Assembly (NCBI GenBank): GCA_951406725.2
Contig: OX597832.1
Span: 61,008,001 to 61,072,000 of the forward strand
Source of the DNA: Octopus vulgaris
Taxonomy: Eukaryota
Length of the DNA: 64,000 bases
Direction of reading: 5' to 3'
The notes under the pieces were generated by a model. That model saw nothing but the letters and a program-made list of their open reading frames with translations. It had not been told where the DNA came from and did not search any database. Made by a program: the position numbers and the translations under genes. This document shows, one piece after another, positions 3,099 through 29,022 of this stretch; position 1 is the first letter of the stretch, and each line of letters opens with the position of its first letter.

Positions 3099-3144
3099 GA
3101 CACCTGACGAAGGCTGGAGGGTATATCAGCCGAAACGTTGTGTT
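3099..3144 (+). ncRNA. Minimal type I hammerhead ribozyme motif (PLE pseudo-LTR type)
   Basis: GACAC-CTGACGA-A-GGCTG..CAGCC-GAAA-CG-TT-GTGTT. Stem I is GACAC/GTGTT, stem II is GGCTG/CAGCC, and stem III is palindromic ACGT. Confidence 0.7.
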
Positions 3145-4380: not shown

Positions 4381-5174
4381 GGAGAAATGCTGGTAAGCAT
4401 TATGTTCGACGCGTTAATGCCATCGAACTCTCCTCCTGGTTACTAAGTTTATGTAAATATAAAATAAAGCGTATCTCGAAACTGTGATTTCCCAAACGAA
4501 TTCCATCAAGAATCCGTCCTCTCACCTTCGCCTCACCACCTCAGTAAAACATACACAAACAGCATCGTACTCGAGTGACTTCACCGTTATCTCTTCCCGA
4601 CATTCCTCAGTCACAGCTGCACAACTGCTCCAACTGCACATCAATCATCTTCAAGACACGTGGCTTCAAAAATACATACATTCAAAGAAATCCCAAAGAA
4701 ACACCTACCAGTTTCCGCTATCTCCTAAACAAAACAAAACATCAAATACGATTGCTATCTGACTCATCAACTGTCAACACATCGCTCACATTTAACACCA
4801 AAAATACTAAGAATAAGAATTGCCAAGAACACTGCCATTGCACTCATAGTCTTTTATATACGAACATGATACAACTTCTGGCGTTTAAATAATACACATA
4901 CATCAAGTATACTGTATTGATATTTTTATTACAGAGCTGCATATATCGCATAATTAGAATTTAGCCATAAATTAGTATACCAGTATGATTAAAACGTTTA
5001 AAATGTATATACAAATGTGAAAAGAAATTGGCTGTAATATTTATTCTCAGACTAAAAGAAAAAAAAGCTCCCCAAAACTAGGGAGACTCGCTCAGAACAC
5101 CAGTGGATCGCCAGACAGTTTCGACCTGATTTAGTCTCCTCAGTGTAAATGAAAAAAATATGAATAGAAAAATC

Positions 5175-10724: not shown

Positions 10725-11141
10725 CTCTTTTACTCTTTACTCTTTTACTTGTTTCAGTCATTTGACTGCGGCCATGCTGGAGCATCGCCTTTAGTCGATC
10801 AAATCGACCCCGGGACTTATTCTTTGTAAGCCCAGTACTTATTCTATCGGTGTCTTTTGCCGAACAGCTAAGTGACGGGGACGTAAACACACCAGCATCG
10901 GTTGTCAAGCAATGCTAGGGGGACAAACACAGACACATAACACCCCACCACACACACATATATATATATATATATATACGACAGGCTTCTTTCAGTTTCC
11001 GTCTACCAAATCCACTCACAAGGCTTTGGTCGGCCCGGGGCTATAGCAGAAGACACTTGCCCAAGATGCCACGCAGTGGGACTGAACCCGGAACCATGTG
11101 GTTGGTTAGCAAGCTACTTACCACACAGCCACTCCTGCGCC
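10725..11141 (-). mobile_element. SINE family A, full length
   Basis: Same head, core and tail as 7572-8035. Confidence 0.9.
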
Positions 11142-11310
11142 TATGTATATGCAAGTATATATATACATGCATATATATGTATGTATATATATATATATAT
11201 ATATACATGCATGTATGTATATATATATATATATATACACATGTATATATATACATATATATATATGCATATATGCATGTATGTATGTATATATCTATCT
11301 ATTTATCTAA

Positions 11311-11389
<79 letters not shown>

Positions 11390-11506
11390 TGCAGATATAC
11401 ATGTATATATGTATATATATATATATATACAGATATATACATATATGCATATATACATGTATGTATGTATATATACATATACATATATATCTATCTATAT
11501 ATATAA

Positions 11507-11559
<53 letters not shown>

Positions 11560-11844
11560 CAAGCAGTGTCTGTGCACCTCTGCTTGTAAATACCTCCTAT
11601 ACACACGCGTTTCGTAGCCATACATACATGACTGTCTGATTAAGAAGTTCGCGCTTCGCAATATGGTTCCCGGTTCAGTCCCACATCATGGCGCTTTGAG
11701 CAATTGTCCTCATTTATACCCCGAAACCAACTAATTCCTTCTAAGTATGGGGGACGGAGTTTGAGTAAGGTTTCCTCACACACATCCACACACACAATCA
11801 CACGTATTACTATGCATATATAATTAGACGATACATTTCTACAC

Positions 11845-11887
<43 letters not shown>

Positions 11888-12066
11888 ACCCTTGTCCTTC
11901 CTCAACTGATGCTGGTTTGCCTACGTCCTCCTAACCTAGCAATCTAGCAGAAAACATGGACAGAATGAGTAAGAATCTTAAAAAGAAAATAGTGATCTCA
12001 TTTTGATCAACTACACACTTCAAAGCGGTAGTCCAGCATGGCCGCAGTCGTTGACTGATACAAATA

Positions 12067-12113
<47 letters not shown>

Positions 12114-12130
12114 GTTGTCGAGAGAGGCTC

Positions 12131-12223
12131 CCTTTCTTTCCTGATGAGAAGATTGCATAATGCACCCTTTATTCCTTTGGAATGAAAACATGCTGTCTTC
12201 GAAACATGTGTCGAGAGTAAAGG
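12131..12223 (+). ncRNA. Type I hammerhead ribozyme, copy 1 (predicted cleavage after GUC, C12212)
   Basis: Stem I CCTTTCTTTC/GAGAG(T)AAAGG; CTGATGA 12141-12147; stem II GAAGA..GCAT/ATGC..TCTTC; GAAA 12201-12204; stem III ACATGTGT; GTC triplet. Confidence 0.8.
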
Positions 12224-12296
12224 AATTTTGTTAACATCTTCGTTCGACTTCATTCTTTAATTTATATATATATATATATGTTGTCAAGAGAGGCTC

Positions 12297-12389
12297 CCTT
12301 TCTTTCCTGATGAGAAGATTGCATAATGCACCCTTTATTCCTTTAGAATGAAAACATGCTGTCTTCGAAACATGTGTCGAGAGTAAAGG
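12297..12389 (+). ncRNA. Type I hammerhead ribozyme, copy 2 (predicted cleavage after C12378)
   Basis: CTGATGA 12307-12313, GAAA 12367-12370, GTC 12376-12378. The core is identical to copy 1. Confidence 0.8.
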
Positions 12390-12425
12390 AATTTTTTTAA
12401 CATCTTCGTTCGACTCCATTCTTTA

Positions 12426-12493
<68 letters not shown>

Positions 12494-12714
12494 TGAAGAT
12501 TTAGTTTCATATGCCAAAATCATGAGGTTCACATCTTATATTATTTTATTCATTAACTGCTTCCAATCAACCGTTTACGGCCATGCTGGGGCAATACCTT
12601 CAAAGGCATTTGAGTGATGATATCAACACTAGTTCATTGCCTGGTACCAGCGATATAATTATATTGCATTCATCCTGTCATAAATGAAAGGCGAAGTCAT
12701 TACACACACCACGT

Positions 12715-12762
<48 letters not shown>

Positions 12763-13829
12763 CGCGTGTGTGTGTGTGTGTGTGCGCGCGTGTGCGTGTG
12801 TATGTATGTATGTATGTATGTGTGTGTGTGTGTGTTGCGAAATACTTTTGCGTTTACGCACAGGGCAGAAAATCTTTCTATATCTAATAGATATTATAAA
12901 GTGTGCATATTTTATTAGAAGATAAAGCTTCTTCAAACGTGGTTCTCTGTTGAAATCGTAACTGAGTTTCATGTTTCCGATTGTTCAAATGATTGATGAA
13001 CGCAGCAACATGACAACATACAAACAAATACATCAAAATATGAATAGCTAGCAGAACATTGAGATTTGATTGCTTGCCAAAAGAGCGGTGGGAAGGGACA
13101 TTAGACAAGGTGACACCTTTTCATGTGTTCATTCCCACGTGATATTTTTCATCTGTACAGATGCAAAATTACATGATAGCTTCCTCTTTTTCCAGTGCCC
13201 TGTGCAAAAAATAACACGTGATCAGGCGAAGTGGTTGGGTCTTGTTGAAGTCTTAGTGTTGATATGAGTGTGAAAACTGGCGCCCCCTTTTTCAAGGTAT
13301 TATAAATTTTGAACTTAGGAAATAAAACTTGAAGTCAGTTGGTAGATAGAAATGAATCGATAAATGGCGAAGGGAGTGGTTGCAAAACAACACCTGTTCA
13401 GGTGTTTTGTCCGAAACTGCGAAGGACTGGAAGTGATTATTAAACATTTACGAGATCGAACTTGAGTTAACGCAACTAAACATCATCATCATCATCATCG
13501 TTGTCAACATGACCTTGGTCATCAAGAGCGTGTTCACCACTACCATCACTACCACCACCATCGCCACCTGTATCATCACCACATTTATCTCCATCACACT
13601 TATTACCATTACTCTCATCACCACCACCACCACCGTCACATATACACTGAACTCACCATTGTGGTGTGTGGCTGACTTAGAAATTCCGGGCGACGATGTA
13701 ATCTTCATTTCACTAAGTTTATCACCGCCAGACGGTTGGCTACGTTGAGTATAACATGCTAGAAGACGAGCTTCAGATGGATACGAAACATGTGCAGCGT
13801 GCATTTTACCTGTCACACTCCCAACAATT

Positions 13830-18841: not shown

Positions 18842-20251
18842 GGATAGGTCGATAAAGGCCAAATAGAGCGGTTGGTATTGCTCACGACATTTTTCTTGTA
18901 GCTGTCGCAGCGCGAAGATCGTGTCTCGCGAGAGCTCCCCTGGGATATTCTCGCCCAGTATGGATGCCCAGATAAGTTCATCTGGATCCTCAAACTCCTC
19001 CACGACAATATGCACGCCAGAGTCCAGACCGACGGAGGCAGTTCTGAGCCCTTTAAAGTCACCTCCGGAGTAAAGCAAGGCTGCGTGATAGCGCCAACTC
19101 TCTTTACCATCTTTATCGCGACAGTGTTGCACATCATACGAGATGACCTTCCACCTGGCATCGAGATCTCGTACAGAATGGACGGCAAGCTTTTCAACCT
19201 CGCTCGCCTCAAAAGTACGTCAAAGACAATGGCGCAAAGCTTGCTAGAGTTCCAATATGCCGACAACAGTGTAGCAGCTTACAGAGAGGATCACCCCCAA
19301 CAGATCCTAAATGCTTTTCATCATGCATATACTAAACTTGGACTGAGCATCAACATCAAGAAGACTTACTTACTCTACCAACCTCCTCCCAATGCCCGTG
19401 TTGACAACCCGCCATCGATTCAACTCGAAGGAATTCCACAGAAAAATGTTAACCATTTCTTCTACCTTGGGAGCCATCTGTCAGCAAAGGTAGACCTCAG
19501 CGATGAAATCCAACACCGTCTGAAGTGTGCAGGAACAGCTTTCGGCAAGCTTCGAACAAGAGTTTTTGCTGATCGGGACATCCGAACCGAAACTAAACTC
19601 ATGGTGTACAGGGCAGTCATTATTTCAACCCTCCTTTACGCATCCGAAACCTGAACCCCGTATAGTCATCACCTGAAAACGCTCGAGAAATTTCACCAAC
19701 GCTGTCTTCGGAAGATCCTTAACATCAGCTGGGAAGACAGAAGAACTAACGTCAGCGTGCTACAAGAAGCAAAAATGACCAGCATCGAAGCCTATGTCAT
19801 CAAAGGCCAACTAAGATGGAGCGGCCACGTGGTTAGAATGACTGACGAACGACTTCCCAAACAGATCTTCTACTCCCAACTCAAAGACGTCAAGCGTACA
19901 AAAGGAGGCCAGAAGAAACGCTACAAGGACTCCCTGAAAACGAACCTCAAAAAGTGTGACATCGACTTCACTAACTGGGAGGAAACGGCAAAAAACAGAC
20001 CACTCTGGAAAACCTCCATCCATGAGGGAACGGCGACTTTCGAGTCGAAAAGGTTTGCAGAGCTGGAGGAGAAAAGACGACGACGGAAGGAGCGCCAACA
20101 ACAACCACGTGCGACTCTCCCTTCCGGCACTAGATGTCCGCATTGCGACCGATCTTTTCAAGCAAGAATAGGTCTTATCGGTCACCTACGAACTCACCAG
20201 TAAATTTGCGCGAAGACCATCATCCTCGACCTTGAGGGATTGCCATCATTA
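18842..20251 (+). mobile_element. 5'-truncated RTE-clade LINE with 5' inversion; candidate TSD TCTGTAG (18836-18842 / 20252-20258)
   Basis: RT motifs GVKQGCVIAPTLF, QYADNS, YLGS and LRWSGHVVRM, C-terminal CPHC..H..TH finger, short 3' UTR and CAT-type tail. Confidence 0.92.
18923..20203 (+). pseudogene. RTE reverse transcriptase C-terminal half with one nonsense codon (19652-19654) and YADD>YADN lesion
   Basis: ORFs 19010-19654 and 19757-20203 are in the same frame. Read-through gives ASET*TPYSHHLKTLEKFHQRCLRKILNISWEDRRTN. Confidence 0.9.
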
Positions 20252-27590: not shown

Positions 27591-27728
27591 ACATATCTCG
27601 AAACAATTCATGATAATGATTAGTATTAATGTGCCGTATATATTTCCTCTCCTTCGACGAATTGCCGGTCCGTCGTAGGATTACTCATTTTTGCCAGCTA
27701 AGCGGACGGGACCAACGTGACATGAAGT

Positions 27729-28146
27729 CACGTTGTGTTAACAACAAACAAGATGAGGACAAATATCCGTCAAATGTAAACAATGTACATAATTCCTCAT
27801 CTCTTAAATATAGAACTGTATTATCTAATCAGTACAGAGCCGACATTAGATTTCAATGGAGACATGTAGAGAAACTCCATCAAAAACTAGCTCGTCTTTC
27901 AAACCATCAAACTTTCCTGTGTAGATGTAGAGGCTCAAAGCTAATACCACTTGGCTTGAATATAATGACACCAGTGGATTCATGTAACGCTAGAAGAGTA
28001 GCGGAAAGGGTAGGACATGCCTTCGTCCGTGAGAGGATCCATTATAACCGTTGTGTTAACAACAAACAAGATGAGGACAAATATCCGTCAAATGTAAATA
28101 ATGTAAATAATGCACATAATTCCTCATCTTTTGAATATAGAACTGT
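27729..28146 (+). mobile_element. Penelope-like mini element: direct repeat - ORF N-terminus - direct repeat, 12-bp TSD, inserted in a SINE C
   Basis: TSD GTGACATGAAGT at 27717-27728 and 28147-28158; repeats at 27731-27819 and 28049-28146. The peptide RHVEKLHQKLARLSNHQTFLCRCRGSKLIPLGL...RERI is typical of PLE N-termini. Confidence 0.82.
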
Positions 28147-29022
28147 GTGACATGAAGTGTTTTGCTCAAGAATACAACGCGTCATCCTGTCCAGGAATCG
28201 AAACCACTAAGCCATGCGCCCCGAACCTCACCGATAATTTTAATTCACTTAATCCAAGCGCTTACAAATTGAAAGTGCTCAACGACCAATTAGAAATATG
28301 CAAAAAGAACGAATTGCCAAATCATTCTTGGGCAGGATACATTTGAATATATATATGACGGTACATTCTCCCAAACATCGAGTTATTTTGACAACTACTC
28401 GCCTCTTCAGCCAAAGTAGAGAAAAAGTTTCCTGTAAAAGAAATTGCGATCAACCAAGAGTATTTACACATAAATGACTGAGATGTACAAAGAGACAGAC
28501 GTGTGAACTACTGGAAGTACCTAACGAGTACACTGCTAAGGAAAATATGTTAGGACAGTTAAAATTCTAAGGAGCATTTTTATGTGGTATCTTGATATAC
28601 ATTCACTTTATGTGGCACATCTTAATTGGTCTGCTTGGAAAAATTAATTACAGAGTGTGCAGTATAACCAATGAGAAATATACTGGGACTATGTTCAGCA
28701 TGTATGTGAAATAAATAGAAACAGTGAGTTTTGGAAATACTCATAGAAAGAAAGTTTACTTTATGGTAATATTCGTGTCATAGTGATGAGCTTAGCAGAA
28801 TCATTAGCACACCGGATAACATTTTTAGCGACATTTCTTCCGGCTCTTTAAGTTCTGAGTGGAAATCAGAGTCGATGTAATCAACTTGTACCCTCCCCTC
28901 AAAAATTGCTATCTTGATCCTCGCAAATGATCGGCATCCCGTTCAGGGGTAATGCTGTGATTTTGGTCACTTATACGCCATGGAATCCGGGTTACAGACC
29001 TTGCCAGTCCAATGGCTCCAGC

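Follow-up and report, generated by a model that had tools for sequence, protein, structure and literature searches.

Hammerhead-bearing ends of Penelope-like elements (PLEs) have already been described as a class, and so has a Hydra-clade family from an octopus. In the Hydra clade of C-terminal EN+ PLEs (Craig et al., 2021; PMC8557442), for which one family from Octopus bimaculoides (Hydra-1_Obim) is listed, a single frame encodes a reverse transcriptase (RT) followed by a GIY-YIG endonuclease, a hammerhead with a short palindromic stem III lies near the 3' end, and copies sit in (TA)n and show 5' truncation, inverted partial tandems and an optional tail. The dimer-dependent minimal hammerheads of PLE pseudo-LTRs (Cervera and de la Pena, 2014; PMC4209133) have a weak stem III whose palindromic loop pairs between copies, and they are predicted to act as dimers with low activity. 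Most of their copies are single and lie in truncated PLEs, and where two lie near each other they usually occupy opposite strands. Metazoan non-LTR retrozymes (Cervera and de la Pena, 2020, PMC7229834; Li et al., 2026, 10.64898/2026.07.22.740005) are short (150–450 bp), low-GC, non-coding tandem units, each with a type I hammerhead and a kinship to the PLE pseudo-LTR.

The locus described here lies in a stretch of 64,000 nucleotides of the Octopus vulgaris genome (assembly GCA_951406725.2, contig OX597832.1, positions 61,008,001 to 61,072,000), referred to as the window; positions below are those of the window unless a contig or locus is named. On sequence grounds, its 166-bp hammerhead dimer is a PLE pseudo-LTR hammerhead that is retrozyme-like in layout only. 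The frame order, near-3' hammerhead, (TA)n setting and insertion architecture of its parent element are those of the Hydra clade. The weak stem III, the pairing between copies and the predominance of single copies in truncated elements also match the PLE pseudo-LTR hammerheads, whereas stems I and II of the window units are longer and a local duplication sets two copies 166 bp apart on one strand. With the retrozymes the dimer has in common all the traits listed above. In contrast to them, it is a single locus, known from DNA alone, without an amplified unit, arrays or a target-site duplication apart from (TA)n, and all other copies of the window sequence are parts of PLE insertions. The dimer is probably a commonplace by-product rather than a family of RNA circles that spread on their own.

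Layout and anatomy of the hammerhead dimer

Tandem Repeats Finder (TRF) reported a period of 166 with 2.1 copies and 97% matches at 12097–12445. Each repeat unit consists of 149 bases of complex sequence and a (TA)n spacer, and (TA)n also lies on both flanks. The features of the locus are as follows.

12058–12113, no strand: 5' microsatellite flank, (TACA)n passing into (TA)n; likely the insertion target and the left repeat of the duplication
12114–12262, + strand: unit 1, the 5'-truncated 3' end (pseudo-LTR) of a Hydra-type PLE, with 97–99% identity to dispersed copies that run upstream into an RT and GIY-YIG frame
12131–12223, + strand: type I hammerhead 1, predicted to cut after C12212; stem I 12131–12140/12213–12223, CTGATGA 12141–12147, stem II 12148–12158/12190–12200 with an inner hairpin at 12171–12183, GAAAC 12201–12205, near-palindromic stem III 12204–12211
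12263–12279, no strand: (TA)n spacer, belonging to the duplicated segment
12280–12428, + strand: unit 2, duplicated from unit 1, with which it shares the 5' breakpoint and the rare base at unit position 146; three changes are private to it
12297–12389, + strand: type I hammerhead 2, with the anatomy of hammerhead 1 shifted by 166; predicted to cut after C12378
12429–12475, no strand: 3' (TA)n flank
12213–12378, + strand: hypothetical 166-nt double-cut product, by arithmetic from the two predicted sites

The units 12114–12279 and 12280–12445 differ at four positions (12120/12286, 12179/12345, 12230/12396, and 12250/12416), none of them in the catalytic core. CTGATGA begins at 12141 and 12307, GAAAC begins at 12201 and 12367, and GTC occupies 12210–12212 and 12376–12378; both units thus have the CUGANGA/GAAA/NUH core and the order of stems I–III that define type I. 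Stem I has 10 pairs, including one G-U, with T12218 bulged, and the long stem II is made of 6 + 4 bp and an inner hairpin. As a monomer, stem III can form 2 bp with a 4-nt loop or 3 bp with a 2-nt loop, and between copies it can form eight pairs (six Watson-Crick and two G-U). A first-pass annotation of this DNA had read a head-to-tail 166-bp dimer set in (TA)n, with two complete type I hammerheads (10-bp stem I, CTGATGA, stem II, GAAA, and GUC), about four substitutions outside the core, and a stem III that has a 2-nt loop as a monomer and pairs fully with a second copy. The repeat period, core positions and unit comparison bear out this description throughout, and the length of 166 nt that it derived for a double cut (12213–12378) is arithmetically correct for the predicted sites. 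Its statement that the unit encodes no protein holds for the 166-bp unit and fails for the source element, which has an RT and GIY-YIG frame.

Covariation supports the hammerhead fold. The window motif was aligned with the homologous motifs of related families in the same genome, which gave 14 distinct rows. Across these sister-family hammerheads, 86% of cells pair, and 10 of the 29 pairs have changed on both sides; stems I and II covary. None of 500 shuffles reached the observed pairing and slid controls paired at 38–51%, so the fold is not a product of chance. The register of the distal half of stem I varies among families, and this part pairs poorly in the alignment. Stem III is self-complementary in every sister family whose sequence covers it, with one both-sided change at the central pair. 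Among close copies the most frequent variant, present in 6 of 30, lies at unit position 95 (window 12208) and makes the wobble stem III perfectly palindromic; most sister-family sequences have this form. The covariation analysis was one of the checks that the first-pass annotation had proposed. Another, a comparison with the Rfam hammerhead models, found no match at E ≤ 1 over 11000–13500 (64 hits) or at E ≤ 10 over 12114–12430 (four hits); the hits were microsatellite-driven miRNA noise. The long stem II is the likely reason why these models miss the units.

The parent element

The assembly searched comprises 2.8 Gb in 227 contigs. A search with the unit gave 1,638 first-look candidates; among the 40 that were scored there were 44 matches, of which the full-length ones are 94–100% identical to the query. 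A 22-base core has 398 exact copies genome-wide. The dispersed copies share sequence 5' of the window breakpoint. Followed upstream, this sequence crosses approximately 260 bases of 3' UTR before it reaches the stop of a frame in which RT motifs precede GIY-YIG motifs. Judged from this sequence continuity, each window unit represents the final 149 bases of a Hydra-type PLE, hammerhead included. The earlier proposal of a dimer-type hammerhead of the Penelope kind is therefore borne out by the upstream frame in longer copies.

The longest open frame in the closest subfamily has 785 aa, and sister families at 70–87% identity have frames of up to about 900 aa. At one sister-family locus, four hammerheads about 3,624 bp apart surround three long frames. 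A sister family forms full-length arrays, arranged head to tail and with hammerheads that are identical and spaced by this distance of about 3,624 bp, at L126:1941–9189 and L127:3313 (contig C1, approximately 119.51–119.53 Mb) and at L128. With open frames of 836–899 aa, the family of these arrays has likely been active recently.

The parent is called Hydra-type from its motifs, which point to this clade: DKT, a divergent RT4, the lack of CCHH, CxxC/CxH, the 3' hammerhead and the (TA)n setting. Read against the alignment of Craig et al. (2021; PMC8557442), the parent frames have DKT in place of DKG together with a divergent RT4; the MGxxD type of this RT4, YRDD, and CxxC..E with CxH around the endonuclease end are further likenesses to the clade. 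CCHH is absent from the alignment of the frames, and CxxC and CxH surround a conserved E and N; of the 16 frames long enough to include the endonuclease, 15 have C..C..E. Pfam matched one of five frame pieces weakly to RVT_1 (E 0.008) and gave one irrelevant weak match besides, and GIY-YIG was not matched in these five pieces; the assignment of a GIY-YIG endonuclease to the parent frame is thus a putative one, based on motifs and alignment.

The parent also differs from the clade as described. The CxCX5C linker is present in none of the 16 frames that span this region, compared with 33 of 45 database homologs, suggesting that the parent is a variant lineage of Hydra or a sister to it. An Asn/Ser-rich low-complexity stretch takes the place of the linker in the long frames of L123, L124, L125, L126–L133 and L140–L142. 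At the N-terminal place of RWK, the three frames that reach it have RWL, and RWK itself occurs in none of 20 frames compared with 18 of 45 database homologs. Moreover, the parent unit is about 3.6 kb long (less than 3 kb in the clade), its tail about 150 bp (30–40 in the clade), and its stem II encloses approximately 40 more bases than those of the listed Hydra motifs. Hydra-1_Obim is another family, given that its hammerhead and RT lines are unlike those of the parent when read side by side. A lineage of Hydra type with thousands of copies in (TA)n and no CxCX5C linker makes the published proposal that this linker steers insertion testable.

Arrangement of copies in the genome

Sixty regions, which account for 71 of the 398 core matches, were examined; these are all listed matches in genome order up to 87.2 Mb on contig C4 and one hand-picked later inverted pair, ahead of which two single matches were passed over. 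A single copy is present in 36 of the 60 loci, a back-to-back inverted pair in 23, and two direct copies 2.2 kb apart in one. The inverted partners have unequal 5' ends, and across the 60 loci sequence coverage declines steadily 5' of the hammerhead. Among 88 records, the reference and one short internal repeat included, 60 reach beyond the window unit on the 5' side and 28 stop short of it, with no 5' end lying 3 bases or less from the window breakpoint. A 3' tail of about 150 bases is found in 40 of the 88, and the other 48 all have TA-rich sequence after their 3' end. In a full-length copy (L137), the tail directly precedes the next frame, the position that PMC11167929 gives for PLE tails. 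These copies therefore have the ordinary architecture of PLE insertions, with 5' truncation, inverted partial tandems, an optional 3' tail, and direct pseudo-LTRs in full tandems.

Two other readings of the unit's ends were discarded. The 149-base unit does not represent a distinct RNA that always begins at one base; the 5' ends are widely spread, although one copy (L004) shares the point. The GTC at 12117–12119 was considered as a second, type III cut site, and the insertion keeps bases 5' of this GTC, so its end is not defined there.

The dimer is unique in the assembly. Genome-wide, two exact cores 40–400 bp apart on the same strand were matched once, in the window, and the tail-to-head junction likewise was matched there alone. 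With a looser motif that takes in the sister families there are 7,555 matches, and a slightly shorter form of the motif gave 17 direct pairs within 500 bases at 16 loci, with periods of 133–501 and no two loci sharing a unit; exact patterns miss diverged copies and tandems, and these tandem counts are therefore lower bounds. At L145, the trimer L146/L147 and L151, the whole insertion is duplicated together with (TA)n and flanking DNA. At L148, L155, L156, L158 and L159, an insertion of a different subfamily lies beside an older copy. Several of the 16 loci have lost one core. These short direct tandems are accidents and not an amplified unit. The trimer (C6:11312878–11313402) has a period of 253–256 and repeats a whole inverted insertion, with three hammerhead cores and (TA)n spacers; among the tandems found, it comes nearest to a growing array.

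The candidate retrozyme or circRNA unit proposed in the first-pass annotation is not supported by these results. Its suggested genome-wide count of monomers and arrays places the dimer at the window only, and the other copies proved to be fragments of long PLEs, which is the genomic half of the outcome that it had named as speaking against a retrozyme. The sequence rule of the 2026 preprint calls for a tandem unit of 150–450 bp of which two or more consecutive copies each have a complete type I hammerhead, and this describes the window dimer; many loci or arrays apart from the autonomous element, as expected of a retrozyme family of its own, were not found in the genome searches or in the 60 loci. 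Reads across a 12378>12213 junction, which had been suggested as a sign of a circle, are not diagnostic, because this junction has the same sequence as the uncut site in all 398 copies. A literature search for 'retrozyme' in octopus, cephalopod and squid, itself weak, found none among the papers listed.

Origin of the dimer

Both units begin at one shared base preceded by (TA)n. Unit position 146 is also A in both, but it is C in 29 of 30 close copies and A in none of these; genome-wide, A is found in nine ends compared with C in 1,036 (9/1,045), and two of the nine are the window units themselves. There is one further private change in unit 1 and there are three in unit 2. The shared 5' breakpoint and the rare base indicate one insertion that was duplicated afterwards. 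Against a private breakpoint, L004 starts within one base of the window 5' point and L103 starts three to four bases further in. With these points considered, the pair likely arose from one heavily 5'-truncated PLE insertion into a TA repeat that was later duplicated in place, with insertion as the presumed earlier event. The PLE endonuclease and RT would have inserted a short cDNA into (TA)n, and this copy may have carried or gained the one rare substitution. Slippage or unequal exchange between the flanking (TA)n tracts would then have duplicated the unit with its spacer, after which the two copies presumably drifted apart through their one and three private changes.

The hammerhead would thus be a passenger at the window locus. 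In the established PLE model, hammerheads act as dimers on read-through transcripts of full-length tandems, and by analogy the parent hammerhead likely acts in this way. The window hammerheads are most likely silent or cut only incidentally; some cleavage would be possible, with both cores intact and the inter-copy stem III predicted to be available.

It is also conceivable, if unlikely, that the locus is a retrozyme at its birth. A read-through transcript would supply the dimer of this PLE end in cis, both sites would be cut, and the 166-nt RNA would be circularized and could be re-inserted by the enzymes of the parent. More broadly, and with the same low probability, tail ends may be duplicated in place repeatedly, with slippage of TA tracts as the trigger, and could be remobilized by the many intact relatives. 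Both cores are indeed intact, the self-complementarity of stem III is kept in the sister families, and related families have long open frames in the genome. Dimers of axolotl retrozymes are reported to be cut better than monomers (PMC7229834), and the 2026 preprint proposes an origin of retrozymes from PLE ends through local amplification and has a sequence rule that would score the window locus as 'active' (10.64898/2026.07.22.740005). However, the core-tandem and junction searches of the assembly found no daughter copies, and the locus has no known promoter or host transcript. In ViennaRNA predictions, the double-hammerhead fold lies about 9 kcal/mol above the ensemble of 12114–12430 (fraction 5e-7). 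The fold that would cut at 12212 (1e-6) is predicted to be about 4 kcal/mol worse than the one that would cut at 12378 (7e-4), since the stem I strand of unit 2 would be trapped in a local hairpin with the bases just 5' of it, and the predicted active fold of the monomer has a fraction of 4e-3. Only the ranking of these energies is used: they cover secondary structure alone, take no account of tertiary contacts or of folding during transcription, and come without a positive control. In other animals, in vitro cleavage is reported for one of nine Xenopus dimers tested (10.64898/2026.07.22.740005), and the hammerhead of an anole PLE required its protein for cleavage (PMC11167929). If the retrozyme-at-birth reading were true, the locus would be a direct snapshot of the step from PLE to retrozyme.

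Two further explanations are very improbable. The tandem may have been made during integration, with the RT copying a short template twice by re-priming or template jump to give a short direct 'partial tandem'. PLEs are described as forming partial tandems (PMC8557442), a single template would also account for the shared rare base, and L089 has a short repeat of its extreme 3' end; yet the paired copies of this family are inverted and unequal at their 5' ends in 23 of the 60 loci, and the identical 5' ends and (TA)n spacer of the window units are a better fit to later DNA duplication, as at L145, L146/L147 and L151, where the flanks are duplicated too. An assembly artefact, with the two alleles of a single insertion joined into a false tandem between TA tracts, deserves just as little credence. 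The dimer is unique in the assembly, its flanks are microsatellites, and no public contig examined spans the spacer, but these contigs are cut at simple repeats, so the missing spanning piece is no evidence. Four differences in 149 bases are, in our judgement, high for two alleles, and similar local duplications, one of them a trimer, exist at other loci.

Under the preferred reading of one truncated insertion duplicated in place, the 16 sporadic tandems provide a measured background rate for accidental hammerhead dimers, at about 0.2% of motif copies. Such accidental dimers would count as active retrozymes in screens that use sequence only. They are also the raw material predicted by the model in which retrozymes originate from PLEs.

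Other features in the window and the genome

Other hammerhead families were encountered as well. At 3104 and 4287 of the window (+ strand), two identical minimal-hammerhead-like motifs of another family lie 1,183 bp apart and are probably, from their sequence, the pseudo-LTRs of a different PLE. A related pseudo-LTR-like sequence was observed near 27620–28147, and further short or degenerate hammerhead-like cores are present at 5143 (- strand), 39963 (- strand), and 52798 (+ strand). Elsewhere in the genome, a different hammerhead family, whose stem III is palindromic, forms direct pairs spaced by about 560 bp at L123:935 and 1495 and at L142:5333 and 5898 (- strand); these could be the partial tandems of another PLE or a true short tandem family. 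A scan of the long frames of the window recognized no coding exon of a host gene, a result that does not in itself make the locus intergenic. One of these frames, at 18902–20200 (+ strand), resembles the reverse transcriptase of a non-LTR retrotransposon, with one internal stop and a terminal C2H2-like motif, and we take it to be RTE-like.
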